DNA of 33,723 bases from Patescibacteria group bacterium. Lineage in GTDB: Bacteria > Patescibacteriota > Minisyncoccia > Phycocordibacterales > GWA1-40-21. Below, piece after piece: positions 5,867 through 30,047 of the stretch. Made by a program: the position numbers and the translations under genes. The stretch's first letter is position 1, and every line of letters starts with the position of its first letter. The notes below the pieces were generated by a model. That model worked only from the letters and a program-made list of their open reading frames with translations, was not told the DNA's origin and searched no databases. Location: positions 1 through 33,723 of the forward strand of contig JAGXAA010000001.1 in NCBI GenBank assembly GCA_018971765.1, given 5' to 3'.

Positions 5867-8752
5867 TTAGATGACTATGCTGATGATTTTGTTTTTCACG
5901 AATAAAATTTTCTTAATCTCGTTCTCTCCGACGTATTTTTTAATTTCAGGAAGAGACAATGCGATACTCTGAATTTCTTCTTGATTTTTATCTTTTCCGG
6001 CGCTGAAGCTGCCTCTGACCTTGCCGTTTATTTGAACAACGACGGTCGTCTCATCAGGCTCAATCTTTGATTCGTCAAATTTCGGCCACTCTTCCAGATG
6101 AATTGATTTTTTTTCACCTAAAATATTTTGCCAAATTTCCTCCGCCAAATGAGGCGCGAAAGGACTCAATAATTTAATAAACGACTTATAGCTGAAAGAT
6201 GACGGCTTATTTTCGTCTTTCTCCATCTCGTTAAGCAGAATCATCAGAGCGCTTATGGCGGTATTGAAGCGAAAATTTTCTATATCCTCCGTTACTTTTT
6301 TTATCGTCTGATGAATCAGTCTCTCCAATTTTGGATTTTCAGTTTTTAGATTTGATTTTTTATTTTTTAATTTGAGCGACAGCGAATAAACTCTTTCCAA
6401 AAACCTCCTTGAACCGATCATATTGTCCGCGCTCCAGCTTATCGGCTGATCGAACGGCCCCATAAACATTTCGTAAACCCTCAAAGTGTCGGCGCCGAAT
6501 TGACTCACGACATCGTCCGGATTAACGACATTGCCCCACCTCTTGCTCATTTTTCTGCCGTCGTTTCCCATAATCAACCCTTGATTTTTTAGGCTGGCAA
6601 AAGGCTCTTTTTCGCCGACAATTCCGATGTCATATAAAAATTTATGCCAAAAACGGGCGTAGATAAGATGTCTTGTCGCGTGTTCAGTCCCGCCGACATA
6701 CATATCCACTGGAGACCAGTATTTTTCTTTTTTCTTATCAACCAACGCCTTCTTATTTTTCGGGTCAATATAACGAAGATAGTACCAGGACGAGCCCGCC
6801 CACTGAGGCATTGTGTTGGTTTCTCTTTTTCCTTTACCTCCGCATTTCGGACACTTCACATTGGTCCATTTATCCATTTTCGCCAAAGGCGATTCGCCGG
6901 TATCGGTCGGCTCGTAAAATTTCACCTTCGGCAACTTCACCGGCAAATCTTTTTCCGGCACAGCGACCACTCCGCAATATCCGCAATGGATAAGAGGTAT
7001 CGGTTCGCCCCAATATCTCTGGCGCGAAAAAACCCAGTCTTTGAGCTTGTAATTTATTTTTTTTTCGCCCAATTTTCTCTCTTCCAGCCACTTCGTCATT
7101 TTTCCTCTGGCAGTTTTAGAATCTAGCCCATCAAATTCCTCTGAATTAATTAAAATGCCATCGCCGGTATAGATACTCTCTTCCCCAATCATTCTGTTCC
7201 AAAAAAGAGTATCGCTTTTATCGTCAAAAAGATAATTTAAGACCTCGTTATGATTTACCCAGACGACATCATGAGTTTCATTTTCTTTTTGGTCTATCTC
7301 CATCTTTTCTCCATTTTCGAGTTCAAAGTAAAGCGGAGTTATAATTGCCCATCGATTTTCGTTTTTATGACGAGCAAAAAATTGATTATGAACCTTGCTT
7401 CCGAGTTTTTTAATGAATTTCGGAGAAACATATCCAGTTTCCTCTTTTATTTCTCTCAAGCCGGCTTTCACAGGATCTTCACCGTCAGTACCTCCAACCA
7501 CAAAAGTTTTCCAGTCATATTTTTTCCATTTTAAACAAATATATTTATTTTCAGACCAGTGTTTTACAATACAGACGACTGTTTCCCTTTTCTGCATCGG
7601 TAAATTTTCCACAATAGCGTCTGGACCGAAAGTTGTCTTAAAAAGTGGTTCGATAATTTCCCTGATCGGCAAATTATATTTTTTGGCAAATTCCCAATCT
7701 CGCTCATCATGCGCCGGCACGGCCATCACAGCACCGGTGCCATATCCACCCAAGACATAATCCGCGACGAAAATAGGCACTTCTTCGCCATTGGCTGGAT
7801 TTAGCGCCTTAACGCCCTTCAAATCCACTCCCGTTTTTTCTTTCGCCAAATCCGTCCTCTGCAAATCAGATTTATTTTTCGCCTCCGTAATATATTTTTC
7901 CACCGCCCCCAAATTTTTAATTTGCCCCTTTAGTTCTTCAATTATTTTGTTTTCAGGGGCGATGACAAGGTAAGTGACACCGAATATCGTATCTACTCTC
8001 GTCGTAAAGATTTTCACTTCTCCAAACTGCAAGCTATTAGCCGTAAGTTTAAAGCTAACTTCCACCCCCTCCGACTTTCCTATCCAATGTCTCTGCGATT
8101 CTTTGATGTGCTCCGACCATCCTTTCAACTCTTTCAAGTCTTCCAGCATTCTTTCGGCGTAGTCGGTGATTTTTAAAACCCATTGCCTCATCGGCTTTTT
8201 AACGACCGGCGTGGCGCACCTTTCGCACTTGCCGTCTTCCACATCTTCATTGGCCAGGCCGGTGAGGCACGACGGACAGAAATTTATCGGCTCGTAAGAT
8301 TCGTAGGCCAGACCCTTTTCAAACATTTTCAAAAATATCCATTGCGTCCATTTGTAGAAATTCGGGTCGGAGGTGATTATTTCTCTATCCCAATCGTAGT
8401 CAAACCCCAGCATCTCAAGCTGTTTCTTGTATCTTTTTATGTTATTTTTAATGGCGACTTCCGGATGAATTTTATTTTTGATGGCGTAATTTTCCGCCGG
8501 CAGACCAAAAGAATCAAATCCCATCGGATGCAGGACATTAAAGCCGTTCATCCTTTTGAATCGGGAATAAACATCTGCGGCGATATATCCTCTTGGATGC
8601 CCGACATGGAGCCCCTCGCCCGACGGATACGGAAACATATCCAAAATGAAACACTTCGGTTTCTTCCCTCCCTCTTTCGTCTTGTAGATTTTCTTGACAG
8701 CCCAGTGCTTCTGCCACTTTTTCTCTATTTTTTTATGGTCGTATTTTTTCAA
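5867..8752 (-). CDS. leuS: Leucine--tRNA ligase carrying an inserted Nudix-like domain
   Basis: 961 aa with a TTG start; an in-frame TAG three codons upstream prevents extension. Motifs: HIGH (HVGHPRGY), KMSKS (KMSKRWGN), CP1 editing motifs (TTRVDTIFG, GTGAVMAVPAHDERD). Residues ~371-528 are extra and contain a Nudix box. Confidence 0.95.
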   Translation of the reverse strand: MKKYDHKKIEKKWQKHWAVKKIYKTKEGGKKPKCFILDMFPYPSGEGLHVGHPRGYIAADVYSRFKRMNGFNVLHPMGFDSFGLPAENYAIKNKIHPEVAIKNNIKRYKKQLEMLGFDYDWDREIITSDPNFYKWTQWIFLKMFEKGLAYESYEPINFCPSCLTGLANEDVEDGKCERCATPVVKKPMRQWVLKITDYAERMLEDLKELKGWSEHIKESQRHWIGKSEGVEVSFKLTANSLQFGEVKIFTTRVDTIFGVTYLVIAPENKIIEELKGQIKNLGAVEKYITEAKNKSDLQRTDLAKEKTGVDLKGVKALNPANGEEVPIFVADYVLGGYGTGAVMAVPAHDERDWEFAKKYNLPIREIIEPLFKTTFGPDAIVENLPMQKRETVVCIVKHWSENKYICLKWKKYDWKTFVVGGTDGEDPVKAGLREIKEETGYVSPKFIKKLGSKVHNQFFARHKNENRWAIITPLYFELENGEKMEIDQKENETHDVVWVNHNEVLNYLFDDKSDTLFWNRMIGEESIYTGDGILINSEEFDGLDSKTARGKMTKWLEERKLGEKKINYKLKDWVFSRQRYWGEPIPLIHCGYCGVVAVPEKDLPVKLPKVKFYEPTDTGESPLAKMDKWTNVKCPKCGGKGKRETNTMPQWAGSSWYYLRYIDPKNKKALVDKKKEKYWSPVDMYVGGTEHATRHLIYARFWHKFLYDIGIVGEKEPFASLKNQGLIMGNDGRKMSKRWGNVVNPDDVVSQFGADTLRVYEMFMGPFDQPISWSADNMIGSRRFLERVYSLSLKLKNKKSNLKTENPKLERLIHQTIKKVTEDIENFRFNTAISALMILLNEMEKDENKPSSFSYKSFIKLLSPFAPHLAEEIWQNILGEKKSIHLEEWPKFDESKIEPDETTVVVQINGKVRGSFSAGKDKNQEEIQSIALSLPEIKKYVGENEIKKILFVKNKIISIVI

Positions 8753-26408: not shown

Positions 26409-26666
26409 TTATTTCTCATCATCTCCCGTCGCGACGACTGAAACATCGGGAGCCTCCGTCTCCGCTATGGCTTGAGCGACTTTTTTGCTCAAATTGGCAA
26501 GGTACCTGGTCGAGATGCCTTGTCCAACCACAACGACAATCAAGACGGCGATAAAAAACCAAAAAAAATTATTGGACACAAAACCCTCCTTTTGAAAAAT
26601 TTTGTAAAAAATAAAGATTTCTCTAAGCAGAGTTCCCGAGGCGCCGTCGGAGCTCATTCCGCTCAT
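26409..26666 (-). CDS. Hypothetical small membrane protein
   Basis: 85 aa with an ATG start and one TM segment (FFWFFIAVLIVVVVGQGI). Confidence 0.35.
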   Translation of the reverse strand: MSGMSSDGASGTLLREIFIFYKIFQKEGFVSNNFFWFFIAVLIVVVVGQGISTRYLANLSKKVAQAIAETEAPDVSVVATGDDEK

Positions 26667-26755
26667 GTTTTTCCGCGAAAAAATCGACTCATAAATAAGA
26701 CCTTTTCAAAGAACTAATCTTAGTTTAAAAAGTAAAACAAATATTAATAATTTTG

Positions 26756-27085
26756 TCAATAATTTCTAGTTTTCCTCTCCTTGAAAAAATCCTCAAGACG
26801 ATATGCCGCGCCCTTGAGACCGACATGCCAGTTTGTCACCGACTCGACCGGCTGATTTTCCTTGTAGTCGTAGATGGTGATGACCGCTCTGCCCCTTCGG
26901 GCAGTTGTTTTGAATGCCCACTCTGCACGGACCTTGCCGTCGCCGGACCGCCATATACCCTCTCTGGTCCGATCGTGTGGTCGGCCGAAGCACTTTACGA
27001 GGTCGTCGTATGATCCTTGAAGATATCCTGCAAAGCCCGAGCCGATGACATCCTTTGGACCTGCTTTTATAAATCGATTTTTCAT
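26756..27085 (-). CDS. Hypothetical protein inside the GC-rich insert, downstream of the RT
   Basis: The ATG at 27085 gives MKNRFIKAGPKDVIGSGFAGYLQGSYDDLVKCFGRPHDRTREGIWRSGDGKVRAEWAFKT...ITIYDYKENQPVESVTNWHVGLKG (109 aa). Its GC-rich codon usage matches the RT and target genes. I recognise no family. The longer track ORF would run through a structured intergenic region. Confidence 0.45.
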   Translation of the reverse strand: MKNRFIKAGPKDVIGSGFAGYLQGSYDDLVKCFGRPHDRTREGIWRSGDGKVRAEWAFKTTARRGRAVITIYDYKENQPVESVTNWHVGLKGAAYRLEDFFKERKTRNY

Positions 27086-27246
27086 GCACGGACGAACATA
27101 CCCCTGCTTTCTTAGGAAGTCTAGCGTCCGAATCTCTGAATTTTCGGCACACGCCCTTGAAGTGGCCCGAAGCCGTGGAAATGGCTTACACCAAGCGGAA
27201 AAGCGCACACGCGGGCGAACAGGGGCCGAATTCAGGGGTATGTTCC

Positions 27247-28077
27247 CTATAAGCCAGCAACCTTTTTCTTTAAATCATTGCCGTCGCCATGACTTAGCAA
27301 TCCGAGGTAAGACTGAACGACCTCTGGTTTCTTCTCCGAATCCCTGATTTTCTTAAACATTCTTTTCTTAGTTGTTGTACGCAGAACCCGATGATGTGGA
27401 AAATGCACCCAGCCGAGAAAGTCGATACCTGACGCTGCGGTCTTCAGAAATATTTTATCCGGATGGAGCGACAGCTTCAGTCTCTCCTCGAGAAAGTCAT
27501 GGACTTTCGGTAGCACTTCCATGAGCACGCCTTTGTCATGGTGCATGATCACAAAGTCGTCGGCGTAGCGGATGTAGTACCTCTGCCTGAGTCCGTGTTT
27601 TACAAACTGGTCGAATTCATTCATGTATATGTTCACGAGAAGCTGCGAGGTTAGGTTGCCGAGCGGCAATCCTTTGCCTGGACCTGTACTCTGAAAGCTG
27701 CTGACGGTCCGTTCAATGAGCCAGATAGTGTCAGGGTCGCTTATGTGCCGCTTCACGATCTGAACCATGGTTGCCTGATCGATTGAGGCAAAGAATTTTC
27801 TGACATCGCACTTCAGGACCCAGCATGTCCTGCTGTTGCTCTCTGAAACCTGCCGTACGAATTGGTTGAAGCGCTTAAGCGCACGGTGTGTTCCCTTGAG
27901 ATGACGGCAGGAGTAGGAATCGTAGATAAATTTCTTATCAAAAAGCGGATACAGGACGCGGTAGATTGCATGATGCAGAAGCCTGTCGCGGACCGTAGCC
28001 TTATGGATACTCCTTGGCTTAGGATCGCTTATCGAAAATGCCTCATACTCGCCGTGTCGATATGTCTTGGTCCGCAA
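27247..28077 (-). CDS. DGR-type reverse transcriptase (frame continues upstream to the ATG at 28215 but is interrupted by TAA at 28197-28195)
   Basis: SISDPKPRSIHKATVRDRLLHHAIY (motifs 1-2), KCDVRKFFASID (motif 3), LPLGNLTSQLLVNIYMNEFD (the DGR-typical GxxxSQ motif 4), YIRYADDFVIM (YxDD), GIDFLGW. The track start at 28077 is TTG. The same frame upstream reads MTTRIS*SIKNLCDAWNEFIRGKKSKKDVAEFSLNLSQNIFRLHEDL. Confidence 0.9.
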   Translation of the reverse strand: MRTKTYRHGEYEAFSISDPKPRSIHKATVRDRLLHHAIYRVLYPLFDKKFIYDSYSCRHLKGTHRALKRFNQFVRQVSESNSRTCWVLKCDVRKFFASIDQATMVQIVKRHISDPDTIWLIERTVSSFQSTGPGKGLPLGNLTSQLLVNIYMNEFDQFVKHGLRQRYYIRYADDFVIMHHDKGVLMEVLPKVHDFLEERLKLSLHPDKIFLKTAASGIDFLGWVHFPHHRVLRTTTKKRMFKKIRDSEKKPEVVQSYLGLLSHGDGNDLKKKVAGL

Positions 28078-28213
28078 ATCCTCATGAAGCCTGAAAATAT
28101 TTTGCGAGAGATTGAGGGAAAATTCAGCGACATCCTTTTTCGACTTCTTACCGCGAATAAATTCATTCCATGCGTCGCATAGATTTTTGATGGATTATGA
28201 TATTCTTGTAGTC

Positions 28214-28609
28214 ATGATTCATTCCCGTAAAGAAGGCGTTTTACCCCCCCCCCGAGAATTACCACAAGTAATTCTCAAGTCGAAAGAGACATACCATTTC
28301 TGGCTGACGCTATATCGTGATTTTCCAAAGGTTGAGCGGTTTGGCATAGGAAATAAAGTAGAGCAGGCTTTTCTTGATGTTCTTGAATACACCTTTTGTC
28401 TGACCTATCTCCCACCGGAGCATAAGGTTCCCATGCTCAACAAAGCGATCACGAAACTCGACATCGTGAAGTTTTTCGCCCAGCTCGCATGGGAGAGCAA
28501 GCTCATTCCAACCGATAAATATTCAGACCTTATCGCGGGCCTTGAAGAAGTCGGCCGACAGCTCGGCGGATGGAAGAAAGGCCTACAAAAGAAAACTTCT
28601 GCTAATTGA
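28214..28609 (+). CDS. avd: Avd-like accessory variability determinant (four-helix-bundle protein)
   Basis: 131 aa from the ATG at 28214. FPKVERFGIGNKVEQAFLDVLEYTF...LDIVKFFAQLAWESKLI...GLEEVGRQLGGWKKGL resembles Avd and 23S-IVS four-helix-bundle proteins; compare the BPP-1 Avd ...AEVGRILGSWI, recalled from memory. It sits next to TR and RT but on the opposite strand. Confidence 0.75.
   Translation: MIHSRKEGVLPPPRELPQVILKSKETYHFWLTLYRDFPKVERFGIGNKVEQAFLDVLEYTFCLTYLPPEHKVPMLNKAITKLDIVKFFAQLAWESKLIPTDKYSDLIAGLEEVGRQLGGWKKGLQKKTSAN
28244..28253. repeat. C10/G10 homopolymer tract
   Basis: ttaCCCCCCCCCCgag. It encodes the PPP of avd codons ~11-14 and lies 29-38 nt upstream of the RT-frame ATG on the other strand. 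Confidence 0.9.
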
Positions 28610-28616
28610 GCAGAAG
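28596..28616. promoter_or_regulatory. 7-bp hairpin straddling the avd stop codon, 12 nt from the TR 3' end
   Basis: CTTCTGC-TAATTGA-GCAGAAG. On the minus strand it lies immediately 3' of TR. Confidence 0.5.
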
Positions 28617-28627
28617 AAAGATAACAG

Positions 28628-28749
28628 TTTCGAGAGAACACCTGGTTGCCATCGTTCCACCTGTTCGGGTTCTCGACGGAGTTCGCATTGACGTTCCAGC
28701 CGTCGTCGTTCCAGTTCACGTTGACCGTTCGGAGCACACCAGCGTTATC
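28628..28749 (-). repeat. DGR template repeat (TR)
   Basis: It aligns without gaps to 29094..29215 (offset 466). On the minus strand it reads ...DNAGVLRTVNVNWNDDGWNVNANSVENPNRWNDGNQVFSRN, rich in AAC/AAT codons. Confidence 0.9.
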
Positions 28750-28984
28750 GTACATGGGACCATCTGCATCACCGCCCACCAAATCATGACAAGCTGAATT
28801 TTATTCGGGACATCGAAGTCCGCCAGTCTCATGTACCAATTCTTATTCTTTTTTTGAAGAGACTTCTCTCACTCTCGCGCAAGGCGTACCCAGCGCGACT
28901 CTCGGGAAAAATATCCTAAGACCATGACGCGGAAGCCGTGACCGCCGCGTAACACATGATTTCGGAAGCAGTATACCAGTTTGA

Positions 28985-29026
28985 ATATAAAAAATTAACC
29001 CCCGGTCTGCCGAAGCAAACCGAGGG
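28985..29026 (-). terminator. Rho-independent terminator after the DGR target gene
   Basis: Minus strand: CCCUCGGUUUGC-UUCG-GCAGACCGGGGG. This is a 12-bp stem whose two non-Watson-Crick pairs are G-U only on the minus strand, with a UUCG tetraloop. It is followed by TTAATTTTTTATAT. Confidence 0.6.
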
Positions 29027-29050
29027 TCAAAGTGTCCAAGGGACAGAGGA

Positions 29051-29761
29051 TCAGGCCGCCGGAGCCGAAGGTTCCGAGGATTCGAGAACAGAATTGCGAG
29101 AGAACACCTGGCTGCCATCGCCCCACCTGCTCGGGTCCTCGACGGAGCGCGCACGGACGAACCAGCCGCCGCCGCACCAGAGCACGCGGACCGCGCGGAG
29201 CACACCAGCGACATCCTTGATGTAGAAGAGATTGGCCCAGCCGTTGTTCAGGAGAACACCTTCTTCGCCATGCTTCTGCTTTTCCATGAGGGAAAACATC
29301 TCGGAGAGAGTGGTTTCAGCTTTCGCTTCGCCACCGAGCTCCTCAATGATCGTACTATCCACTGATGCCTTGCGCAATTTTGCATAGTGCAGGGTTTGTT
29401 CACTGATAGGGTCTTCGATTTTGCCGTCACCGTTTAGGAACCACGCCTTGAAGTTGCCGCCGAGGTAGCTGATCTTCACCGGAGCGTTACGCTTGGTGTT
29501 GATCACAAACCTCTCTTTGGCGACGAGCTTGCCGGTCGTTGCGGGAATGACGATCGTCGAGACGAGCTCGAGGAGATCGGTCCGGGGCTTCGGAGCGGGC
29601 GCTTGCGCGACCTCACCGTTACTCCAGCAGGACTCTTTGCGGAGAAACCGCTTGAGTTCTTCTTCCCATTGGCTGCCGTCCTGGCCGCCGAGGTTCACAA
29701 TGAGCTGATTGAGCGGTCCGGTTGTGAATTCGCGGAGCGCCTTGCTGAGCATAGTATCCAT
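29051..29761 (-). CDS. DGR target (variable) protein; VR forms the C-terminal ~40 codons
   Basis: 236 aa with AAAGGAG 7 nt upstream of the ATG. C-terminus: ...DVAGVLRAVRVLWCGGGWFVRARSVEDPSRWGDGSQVFSRN. It matches the TR translation except at TR Asn/Asp/Thr codons. Confidence 0.85.
   Translation of the reverse strand: MDTMLSKALREFTTGPLNQLIVNLGGQDGSQWEEELKRFLRKESCWSNGEVAQAPAPKPRTDLLELVSTIVIPATTGKLVAKERFVINTKRNAPVKISYLGGNFKAWFLNGDGKIEDPISEQTLHYAKLRKASVDSTIIEELGGEAKAETTLSEMFSLMEKQKHGEEGVLLNNGWANLFYIKDVAGVLRAVRVLWCGGGWFVRARSVEDPSRWGDGSQVFSRNSVLESSEPSAPAA
29094..29215 (-). repeat. DGR variable repeat (VR)
   Basis: 122 nt homologous to TR. By hand alignment there are 24 mismatches, and every one falls at a plus-strand T (coding-strand A) of TR. 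Confidence 0.9.
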
Positions 29762-29815
29762 GGTCAGTCTCCTTTCTGTGGATTGTTATTTGCTGTCGAT
29801 TTGGCCACATTGGTT

Positions 29816-29866
29816 TCATCACAGCAGAGAATGGCTTAGTGTGTAAGCCGCTTTCTGCTGTGATGA
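29816..29866. promoter_or_regulatory. Large perfect palindrome in the 5' leader of the target gene
   Basis: TCATCACAGCAGA...TCTGCTGTGATGA (13-bp perfect arms) with an inner GGCTTA/TAAGCC stem. It lies between the predicted promoter and the RBS. Confidence 0.6.
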
Positions 29867-29900
29867 ATCTCGCAATTTCAAAGACCTTATTTTTAATGCT

Positions 29901-29930
29901 ATTGTAGCACAAGAAGTACCTATTTGTCAA
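29901..29930 (-). promoter_or_regulatory. Near-consensus sigma-70-type promoter for the target gene
   Basis: Minus strand: TTGACA, an 18-nt spacer ending in TGC, then TACAAT (extended -10 TGnTAcAAT). Confidence 0.5.
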
Positions 29931-30047
29931 TTATCTACCAATTATACCGCGCTCTTTTTGCGTATTGTCCCTATATTGAGCCGTTAAATGAATTTATGGA
30001 TTCACGGTTTCGTTAATTTTAGCGCTTGTGCTATATTGTTCCAAATT

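Follow-up and report, generated by a model that had tools for sequence, protein, structure and literature searches.

What does a DGR rewrite when its target is a small protein that seems to stay inside the cell? DGRs are unusually common in CPR bacteria, and the locus considered here raises this question. It lies in a 33,723-nucleotide stretch of DNA from a Patescibacteria group bacterium (the window; contig JAGXAA010000001.1, positions 1 to 33,723), in which the ATG-started ORF 29051..29761 on the minus strand encodes 236 aa. On balance, we read this product as a three-part, soluble DGR variable protein, a programmable ligand binder that is most likely intracellular. We see in the target an ordinary representative of a class already known but still uncharacterised, and in the window no new kind of element.

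The target gene and its start

The N-terminus quoted in an earlier note on this DNA, made from the sequence alone, is an exact match to the translation of the ORF. The gene call rests on the ORF list, on homologues and on an SD-like AAAGGAGA 6 nt 5' of the ATG. Only 8 open codons precede this ATG (the open frame as a whole is 244 aa), and there is therefore no room for a hidden signal peptide. Further upstream we find a sigma-70-like promoter (29901..29930, minus strand; TTGACA-18-TACAAT, 11 of 12 matches, with TG before the -10 hexamer) and, in the presumed 5' UTR of the target gene, a 24-nt inverted repeat that is 88% complementary (29815..29867, not assigned to a strand); blastn-short finds the inverted-repeat region kept in 4 of 80 loci. 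The stop codon is followed by a terminator-like hairpin with a 16-pair stem and then a T-run (28995..29030, minus strand). Contigs from the RNA library X15 (29272-29777) were considered as a sign that the target gene is transcribed and rejected: they carry 16-17 differences and derive from a relative.

The target belongs to a complete, probably functional DGR

The earlier note had taken the ORF for a DGR target, and this is borne out by a VR/TR pair with adenine-only mismatches accompanied by an RT and an Avd gene. The variable repeat (VR; 29094..29215, minus strand) covers 122 nt at the C-terminal end of the target, codons 183-223 of 236, and pairs with a template repeat (TR) of the same length at 28628..28749, also on the minus strand. 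The two differ at 24 positions, all of them among the 34 adenines of the TR, with no drift anywhere else; a naive chance estimate for such a pattern is ~5e-14. The TR has 11 AAY codons (10 AAC and one AAT), and its mutagenesis could produce ~10^17.6 protein variants and no stop codon. The Avd accessory gene (28112..28609) lies on the plus strand, opposite to the target, and matches Pfam bAvd at 1.6e-10 (41.8 bits, above the cut-off of 40) and NCBIfam DivGenRetAVD at 4.4e-16 (59.1 bits, below the equivalog cut-off of 80). The DGR reverse transcriptase (27247..28077, minus strand, 276 aa) matches Pfam RVT_1 at 4.7e-24 and carries LGNLTSQ at residue 139 and YADD at residue 171; [I/L]GxxxSQ is a mark of DGR RTs.

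The resulting gene order, target, TR, Avd (opposite strand) and RT, recurs unchanged at 35 of the 80 related loci. In 31 of 81 loci, the window included, there is a VR/TR pair whose mismatches fall to at least 80% on adenines of the downstream copy, and across 9 loci the TR is the best-conserved stretch of the cassette (0.91-0.94 identity). We read the target ORF as the variable protein of a complete CPR-type DGR that is probably functional.

Might the DGR nevertheless have fallen silent here, the VR having been diversified in the past and now being fixed, so that the protein is a constant binder like its non-DGR relatives? Contigs from runs X1 and X3, both of one study, carry a VR identical to that of the window while 6 gene-body positions differ. 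These are assembled Logan contigs, however, which hide minority variants and in which coverage gaps carry no meaning; the contigs of X5 break around the VR. Relatives also lend some weight to a fixed VR: with the query used, no RT was found in 4 of 5 genomes holding an 'orphan' family member, and the Verrucomicrobiota homologues have a fixed VR-equivalent, with Avd in 0 of 5 genomes. The window, on the other hand, retains intact RT motifs, Avd and TR, the conserved RNA upstream of the TR and the conserved DNA downstream of the VR, and the strict adenine specificity of the mismatches without other VR/TR drift speaks for a working system. We consider an inactive DGR improbable.

A short N-module, a linker and a conserved core

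The uncharacterised N-terminal domain of ~190 residues in the earlier note indeed matches no described family, but it is not a single domain: it resolves into an N-module, a linker and part of a core that includes the VR. The N-module of ~50 aa (residues 1-50; 29612..29761, minus strand; L..L.G..G..W...L..FLRKE.CW) is delimited by entropy, by the points at which alignments start and by its occurrence elsewhere. It is joined by a Pro/Ala-rich linker (residues 51-61, EVAQAPAPKPR; 29579..29611, minus strand), variable and gapped in family alignments, to a core of ~165 aa (residues 62-224; 29090..29578, minus strand), which forms the conserved block of the family alignment and has the VR as its last third. 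Residues 1-61 have a mean entropy of 3.01 bits and the core one of 1.84, and in 98 of the best 150 representatives similarity begins only at residue 44 or later. Near-invariant core residues include F79, F85, F104, F108, K114, E116, L124, L129 and I138, and further along G143, Q162, G168, L170, N177, F179, Y180 and D183. Clustering of the N-terminal parts, for which 80 of 150 representatives were parsed by regular expression, sorted them into 15 clusters, with 49 of 70 sequences in the largest; it is confounded because the cut took in the start of the conserved core.

Used alone as a query, the N-module matches other ORFs of ~200-250 aa in 4 other Patescibacteria genomes; judged by this similarity, it also occurs on non-diversified proteins outside the target family. 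No second copy was found in the target's own genome. The neighbours of the four N-module paralogues are housekeeping genes, namely those for enolase, PriA, UvrC, PolA, a T2SSE ATPase and a sigma factor, and give no functional clue. Imm31 (PF15591) was rejected as an identity for the N-module, its score of 16.5 bits (E = 0.0082) lying below the cut-off of 25, with only 3 of 112 members matching at E<=0.1.

The low-complexity tail SVLESSEPSAPAA reported after the VR is present (residues 225-236; 29054..29089, minus strand); as a feature of the protein it does not hold up, being dispensable in relatives, 29 of the 58 compared having their stop at least 3 codons earlier than the target. The tail DNA persists behind the stop codon, with identities of 0.82 (L006) and 0.95 (L023). 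A DNA hairpin inside the tail region is unsupported (z = -0.45), and a hydrophobic-moment guess at the secondary structure of the target was set aside as too noisy.

The VR itself follows the scaffold given in the earlier note, which is correct, with V191, W195, G199, W200, A204, W213, V219 and F220 near-invariant. Among 112 family members, mean entropy is 2.69 bits for VR codons with a TR adenine versus 1.06 for those without, and the hypervariable columns of the family coincide with TR-adenine codons. The identity among homologues and the low entropy at the scaffold codons of the VR show that the family protein is under selection.

A large family in Patescibacteria

The target has 704 homologues at E<=1e-3, the closest 120 of which are 66-98% identical over their full length; clustered at 50% identity, the family amounts to 2486 clusters, mostly from Patescibacteria. 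The earlier note had singled out the small, signal-less target as unusual. This does not stand: with so many clusters, and according to the published description of CPR targets (PMC8144416), such a protein is typical for the host group. CPR clade-2 DGR targets are described there as typically without TM segments or other recognisable domains (Roux 2021, PMC8144416). As far as the published descriptions go, the target resembles the CPR DGR targets of clade 2 (Roux 2021) and of UVR1-6 and architecture B3 (Wu 2018) in host group, in the three-gene cassette with its opposite-strand Avd, in the C-terminal VR, and in the absence of a TM segment, a signal peptide and any known domain (PMC8144416, PMC5758913).

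Non-diversified relatives exist in Verrucomicrobiota and in Patescibacteria, and the Verrucomicrobiota homologues, at 164-170 aa, consist of the core alone. In a quick tree search over 72 rows, from which ORFs below 150 aa, minus-strand ORFs and ORFs without the chosen motif had been dropped, the five rows from Verrucomicrobiota group together as a single clade (SH-aLRT 99). Because the tree has no root and resolves poorly, with 36 of 69 inner branches open, we claim no direction of evolution. Larger arrangements of the core occur as well: tandem arrays of two cores in P0125 and five in P0121, and in P0271 a fusion to a WGR domain (2.7e-14), which was the only Pfam match among 10 divergent or fused relatives. 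Searches for longer fused forms returned P0271 and P0121 only, which is weak evidence.

The distribution of the cassette invites another explanation, that it was left behind by a phage or other mobile element after landing in the chromosome, its target being a receptor-binding, tail-fibre-like protein. The GC content of the cassette lies above that of its flanks (0.50-0.59 versus 0.36-0.44); its occurrence is patchy (14 of 301 Patescibacteria genomes sampled, and 0 of 3 from the same genus); and cassettes of 70-80% identity sit in differently labelled CPR lineages. The target, however, has no PHROG match, and tblastn of the target against 50,697 phage records returned no match. Homology between loci is confined to the cassette, stopping at the RT stop codon and just upstream of the target, and no conserved gene other than the cassette's own was found beside it in related loci. 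The neighbours in the window are housekeeping ORFs (topA-, ftsH- and smpB-like), and no tRNA was found within it. A phage or mobile-element leftover thus seems highly improbable to us.

Fold comparisons and proposed mode of action

In line with the earlier note, which could not recognise the N-terminal ~190 residues, profile searches of the target gave no match in Pfam, NCBIfam, PHROGs or PADLOC, and hence no described family. The best PDB hit by phmmer is a Kelch-like protein at E = 0.42, and a profile search of 177,635 distinct PDB chain sequences gave nothing better than E = 0.3. The hhalign probability is 0.3% both for Mtd and for an alignment of 6 FGE-sulfatase sequences; of the 112 family members scanned, none has an FGE-sulfatase match in the list of 15 Pfam families. 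The ESM Atlas holds no model of the target protein or of P0100. The nearest named ESM Atlas clusters, DUF4317 (0.88-0.89) and DUF5701 (0.83-0.85), fall below the lead level of 0.9 and were unrecovered by hmmscan. 'CLec-like', which would imply beta1/beta5 pairing, two helices and a beta2-3-4 sheet, is therefore a label taken from precedent.

That precedent is instructive, since AvpA, a protein that could not be assigned by sequence, proved to have a CLec fold in which the IMH-encoded part is strand beta5 (Handa 2016, PMC5006420). As published, AvpA (Nanoarchaeota, a new CLec subclass) shares with the target its small size, its essentially single-domain build and ~12 variable residues that are mostly AAY-encoded (PMC5006420). 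It also shares a non-variable IMH-encoded C-terminal strand that closes the VR, and post-VR residues that overlap cis-acting DNA (PMC5006420). The two differ in the VR, which has 41 codons in the target and 27 residues in the AvpA description (PMC5006420), and in the additional N-module and linker of the target; as noted, no PDB chain comes closer to the target than E = 0.3. Likewise, Mtd of Bordetella phage BPP-1 and TvpA of Treponema, both FGE-subclass CLec proteins, carry the VR at the C-terminus and have it diversified at AAY codons, with a TR as template; they further resemble the target in the presence of Avd and RT and in their invariant aromatic scaffold residues. Unlike Mtd, from which it is separated by the hhalign result above, the target is not a phage tail protein by PHROGs and phage records, and unlike TvpA, whose account includes a predicted lipoprotein signal (PMC8867640), it has none.

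In our reading of the DGR, the RT would copy TR RNA with adenine-specific errors, and the cDNA would then overwrite codons 183-223. Some 12 positions would be rewritten (184, 192, 194, 196, 201, 203, 205, 209, 211, 214 and 217, and less strongly 197/198), alternating with an invariant Val/Trp/Gly/Ala scaffold. Given such alternation, a beta-hairpin or sheet may carry the variable side chains on a single face, and the non-variable, IMH-encoded 'QVFSRN' strand would close that face, following the pattern of the solved CLec-fold DGR proteins. Variable side chains gathered on one face would make the protein a programmable ligand binder, and we think the target most likely a soluble one, with the N-module as a putative docking or adaptor piece.

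Where does the target act?

The earlier note had seen no signal peptide, lipobox or TM segment in the target, and crude heuristics, namely hydropathy and reading by eye, agree with it. The highest Kyte-Doolittle mean over 19 residues is 1.48, at residue 63, the eye detects neither an RR motif nor a lipobox, and no sortase motif is present. The hydropathy scan has a known blind spot, having missed the obvious signal peptide of the relative P0125; among the family sequences read by eye, no other has a signal peptide. Since neither a TM segment nor a signal of the Sec, Tat or lipoprotein kind was detected, the target is most likely intracellular, or else leaves by a non-classical exit. The literature is itself undecided on this point: the published discussion leaves open whether signal-less CPR DGR targets are truly non-membrane (Roux 2021, PMC8144416).

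A non-classical exit is what the main competing explanation calls for, in which the target is a surface-displayed or released adhesin whose N-module docks to a pilus or S-layer and which helps an episymbiont attach to changing host surfaces. Characterised cellular DGR targets are surface proteins, and in the published survey a TM segment or signal peptide is present in most clusters of cellular targets (PMC8144416). Some relatives fit the adhesin too: P0125 combines its signal-peptide-like N-terminus with two tandem cores, which, as far as its sequence indicates, means that the core can function outside the cytoplasm; together with the five cores of P0121, it suggests multivalency of the adhesin kind. 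The N-terminal modules vary among relatives, moreover, as anchoring modules do. Set against this, neither a signal peptide or lipobox nor a TM segment or sortase motif was seen in the target, an upstream extension would have no space, P0125 stands alone as a signal-bearing member among the sequences read by eye, secretion and pilus genes are not conserved next to the cassette, and the WGR fusion of P0271 points to an intracellular setting. We regard the adhesin as doubtful.

An intracellular, programmable binder remains the reading that we prefer, and it has a parallel in the putative intracellular antigen sensors of multicellular bacteria (Dore 2024, PMC10907252), which are likewise described as DGR targets predicted to be intracellular. 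Compared with the sensors of that description, the target is a stand-alone protein of 236 aa without an NTPase, protease or other effector domain and without a PADLOC match. An intracellular pathway is not suggested by the surroundings either: no effector domain was found in the target, no partner gene is conserved next to the cassette, and the target's own genome has no second N-module. One could go further and suppose a truly cytoplasmic hypervariable binder of non-CLec fold, an 'intracellular antibody' of ultra-small bacteria whose N-module, which non-diversified paralogues share, would couple recognition of phage or host proteins to a response and whose DGR-free relatives would be frozen specificities; we think this rather unlikely. 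The family is compact, with its ~165-aa core, abundant and well delimited, and has DGR-free relatives with a fixed VR; it is therefore a convenient model for the non-membrane question.

A structured RNA upstream of the TR

The DNA between the target and the TR specifies a structured RNA (28750..28979, minus strand, this interval including a promoter-like -10 box at 28969-28979), delineated by RNAalifold covariation. Its predicted helices lie, on the minus strand, at 28960-28921, 28909-28865, 28836-28825/28761-28750, 28821-28808 and 28794-28774. Over 18 loci, RNAalifold predicts 62 pairs, 42 of them with compensatory changes; 96.4% of cells are paired, slid controls giving 42-51%, and none of 500 shuffles attains the observed values. 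The hairpin behind the target stop codon is helix 1 of this RNA alignment, with compensatory changes in 7 of its 10 pairs. The Rfam model RT-9 (RF03080) matches over its full length at 29.8 bits, below its gathering score of 46.1, a value attained by none of 15 related loci. This RNA is thus supported by covariation and similar to Rfam RT-9, and it suggests that CPR-type DGRs, in which avd is encoded on the opposite strand, have their own RNA scaffold. Immediately 3' of the TR, a hairpin with a T-run (28596..28616, minus strand) forms a predicted terminator-like site.

The target gene and its DGR cassette

The 236-aa ORF at 29051-29761 (-), which the earlier note had proposed as a DGR target, is real and encodes the protein quoted there; a Shine-Dalgarno-like sequence, AAAGGAGA, lies 5' of its ATG. 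Upstream of the ATG the frame stays open for only 8 further codons (244 aa in all), so a signal peptide cannot be hidden at the N-terminus. The last part of the gene, codons 183-223, is the variable repeat (VR; 122 nt, 29094-29215 (-)), and its partner is a template repeat (TR) of 122 nt at 28628-28749 (-). The two copies differ at 24 positions, each of them an adenine in the TR, which has 34 adenines overall. The TR contains 11 AAY codons; adenine mutagenesis cannot turn it into a stop codon and gives access to ~10^17.6 protein variants. The reverse transcriptase (RT; 276 aa, 27247-28077 (-)) matches RVT_1 at 4.7e-24 and carries the motifs LGNLTSQ and YADD. The gene for the accessory protein Avd, at 28112-28609 (+), hits bAvd at 1.6e-10; its DivGenRetAVD match (4.4e-16) stays under the equivalog cut-off. 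The DGR of the window is complete, and its adenine-specific, TR-templated rewriting is limited to target codons 183-223. The window's genome (862,517 bases in 108 contigs, 96% complete) encodes no target besides this one.

As to the assembled sequence, the contigs of all four sequencing runs compared differ from the window letter at 29353, 29357, 29388 and 29408. At 29457 the difference is complete in three runs and affects one of the two X5 contigs; at 29448 the difference is confined to X1 and X3. These gene-body differences (29353-29457) correspond to an allele like that of the family protein P0001 (98% identity). The VR in the X1 and X3 contigs is identical to that of the window.

Anatomy of the target protein

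The first 190 residues had been taken as one uncharacterised domain, a view that the comparative data do not bear out. In 98 of the best 150 of 2486 representatives (our own count) the best-scoring stretch begins at query residue 44 or later. In an alignment of 112 sequences mean entropy is 3.01 bits over residues 1-61 and 1.84 bits over the core up to the VR, and within the VR it is 1.06 bits for scaffold codons versus 2.69 bits for TR-adenine codons. The hypervariable columns (184, 192, 194, 196, 201, 203, 205, 209, 211, 214 and 217) alternate with the near-invariant V191, W195, G199, W200, A204, W213, V219 and F220. The target therefore consists of an N-module (residues ~1-50), a Pro/Ala linker (51-61), a conserved core that includes the VR (62-224) and a tail after residue 224. 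Outside the rewritten codons it is a small, strongly conserved protein.

The tail is dispensable and is not a conserved feature of the protein: 29 of the 58 relatives compared stop at least 3 codons earlier, many of them at ...VFSRNS. Behind that stop codon the tail DNA is still 0.82 (locus L006) and 0.95 (L023) identical to the window. It is the DNA following the VR that is conserved. Passages of Roux et al. 2021 (PMC8144416) and Handa et al. 2016 (PMC5006420) place cis-acting DGR elements in this part of the DNA. In one relative, P0096 (293 aa), the target runs straight into the TR reading frame and the VR is TR-like and Asn-rich, a form that may reflect a VR-TR deletion or an assembly collapse.

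Fold, export and the likely site of action

For the target no family match came from Pfam, NCBIfam, PHROGs, PADLOC, the PDB or phage records. NCBIfam, PHROGs and PADLOC returned nothing, PDB searches by sequence and by profile yielded no hit under E = 0.3, and no match was found among 50,697 phage records. Alignment of the target family with hhalign gave a probability of 0.3% against the DGR target BPP-1 Mtd, and likewise 0.3% against six aligned FGE-sulfatase domains from Patescibacteria. A Pfam scan of the 112 aligned members listed 15 families, with lectin, FGE-sulfatase and DUF1566 absent and Imm31 present in 3 of the 112; for the target itself Imm31 scores 16.5 bits versus a cut-off of 25, and we reject this sub-threshold assignment.

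In the VR, the alternation x-V-x-V-x-W ... G-W-x-V-x-A-x-S suggests beta strands whose variable side chains all point to one side, and the non-variable, IMH-encoded end 'QVFSRN' would, by analogy with AvpA, Mtd and TvpA, form the closing strand of a C-type-lectin (CLec)-like fold. If so, the target would be a programmable binder.

The absence of a signal peptide, lipobox or transmembrane segment, also claimed in the earlier note, is borne out by a crude heuristic, a hydropathy scan combined with reading by eye. The top 19-residue hydropathy, 1.48, falls on the conserved core segment LLELVSTIVIPATT, away from the N-terminus, and no twin-arginine motif or lipobox was seen by eye. Since an export signal is not recognisable here or in almost all relatives, and since one relative is fused to a WGR domain (P0271, 432 aa: WGR at 2.7e-14, ~200 residues without an assigned domain, then a core), we lean slightly towards a binder that acts inside the cell, or that at any rate does not leave it through Sec, and for which the N-module would serve as a docking piece. 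The main rival, a surface adhesin that would leave the cell by a non-classical route, draws on the general DGR literature, on P0125 (379 aa), in which a signal-peptide-like N-terminus precedes two cores, and on tandem core arrays such as the five cores of P0121 (926 aa). We consider it rather unlikely.

Published CPR (Patescibacteria) DGRs offer a comparison. In passages of Wu et al. 2018 (PMC5758913), 90% of the CPR set has architecture B3, known target motifs are few, and the VR classes 'UVR1-6' are those of undetermined fold. The relevant section of Roux et al. 2021 (PMC8144416) describes CPR clade-2 targets as typically devoid of transmembrane or other conserved domains, adding that their truly non-membrane nature 'remains to be established'. 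With the class as these passages portray it the window target agrees in every respect tested, and it therefore belongs to an already described class. What is new here is the three-part dissection, the dispensable tail, the DGR-free relatives and the size of the family.

Family size, distribution and genomic context

Among 1.84 billion representative proteins searched, relatives number 2486 at E<=1e-3; of these, 1489 also pass E<=1e-10 and 350 pass E<=1e-30. For the nearest 120 of 704 homologues, identity to the target is 66-98%; they carry no Pfam domain and, where named, are called 'hypothetical protein'. A relative is encoded in 114 stretches across 185,579 species genomes; we kept 80 loci, nearly all labelled as Patescibacteria lineages, with a few Verrucomicrobiota or Proteobacteria. 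RT and Avd are found in the window's order in 35 of the 80, and 31 of 81 loci (window counted) show a VR/TR pair in which adenines of the downstream copy account for 80% or more of the mismatches; the same DGR system recurs in dozens of genomes. For 'orphan' family members this query found no RT in four of five genomes, which are metagenome-assembled and so possibly incomplete.

Homology among nine cassettes compared is bounded by the RT stop codon and by a point slightly 5' of the target ATG, and no further conserved gene was found beside the cassette in related loci. A 150-aa ORF just downstream of the RT (26756-27208 (-)) lies outside this block, occurs in none of the 80 related loci and has no match in Pfam, NCBIfam, PHROG or PADLOC. 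The cassette (26850-29850) has a GC content of ~0.50-0.59 versus ~0.36-0.44 for flanking genes, and the family is patchy: it occurs in 14 of 301 Patescibacteria genomes sampled, in 10 of 41 relatives and in none of 3 from the same genus (own genome included where applicable). The GC contrast and this distribution together suggest horizontal acquisition. No tRNA was found in the window, nor flanking repeats within 26600-30000.

DGR-free relatives

In five homologues from Verrucomicrobiota (164-170 aa; L073:537-1031, L076:1213-1725, L077:186-698, L079:4974-5486 and L081:4983-5492) the core makes up the whole protein. Their VR-equivalent is fixed and nearly alike in all five; none of the five genomes has Avd or a close RT, and in one of them a separate contig carries an RT of 32% identity. 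They form one clade in a quick, poorly resolved and unrooted tree. The family is rare in this phylum (1 of 201 sampled genomes, the centre genome itself).

Searched alone, the N-module (…G..G..W…L..FLR.E..W) matches other Patescibacteria ORFs of ~200-250 aa: L103:1471-2175, L104:1012-1671(-), L105:1015-1632(-) and L106:949-1635(-). L105 and L106 align with target residues 2-182 at 25% identity; L103 and L104 share the N-module alone. The neighbours of these four ORFs are housekeeping genes, and no RT, Avd or adenine-biased repeat lies within ~7 kb. In one Patescibacteria genome, direct repeats of 80 nt (95% identical; L110:7438-7516 and 8240-8319) surround an N-module/core paralogue gene and might mark a small insertion.

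A structured RNA 5' of the TR and other non-coding elements

The ~300 nt from the target stop codon to the TR are 0.70-0.86 identical between loci, on a par with coding regions. Within them, 28750-28979 (-) encodes a structured RNA, supported by covariation, with its own -10-like box (TG-TATACT) 5' of the structure. Of the 62 pairs predicted for the fold common to 18 loci, 42 show compensatory changes; the share of paired cells is 96.4% versus 42-51% in slid controls, and none of 500 shuffles matches the observed pairing values. The first hairpin and the next single-stranded stretch match the full Rfam RT-9 model at 29.8 bits, under its gathering score of 46.1, which none of 15 related loci reaches. 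RT-9 is one of the motifs RT-1 to RT-19 that Weinberg et al. 2017 (PMC5737381) describe near RT genes; the authors speculate on a DGR role for some of them and do not discuss RT-9 in their main text. In this architecture, with Avd on the other strand, the structured RNA probably forms the 5' portion of the DGR template RNA.

Immediately 3' of the TR, a hairpin with a T-run (28596-28616 (-)) could form the end of the TR RNA or have a role in priming. The target's presumed 5' UTR contains an inverted repeat of 24 nt with 88% complementarity, at 29815-29867 (-), and upstream of this repeat is a sigma-70-like promoter (11/12) at 29901-29930 (-). This promoter and inverted-repeat region is kept in four of the 80 related loci (L003, L019, L022 and L062), three of which have a different N-module.
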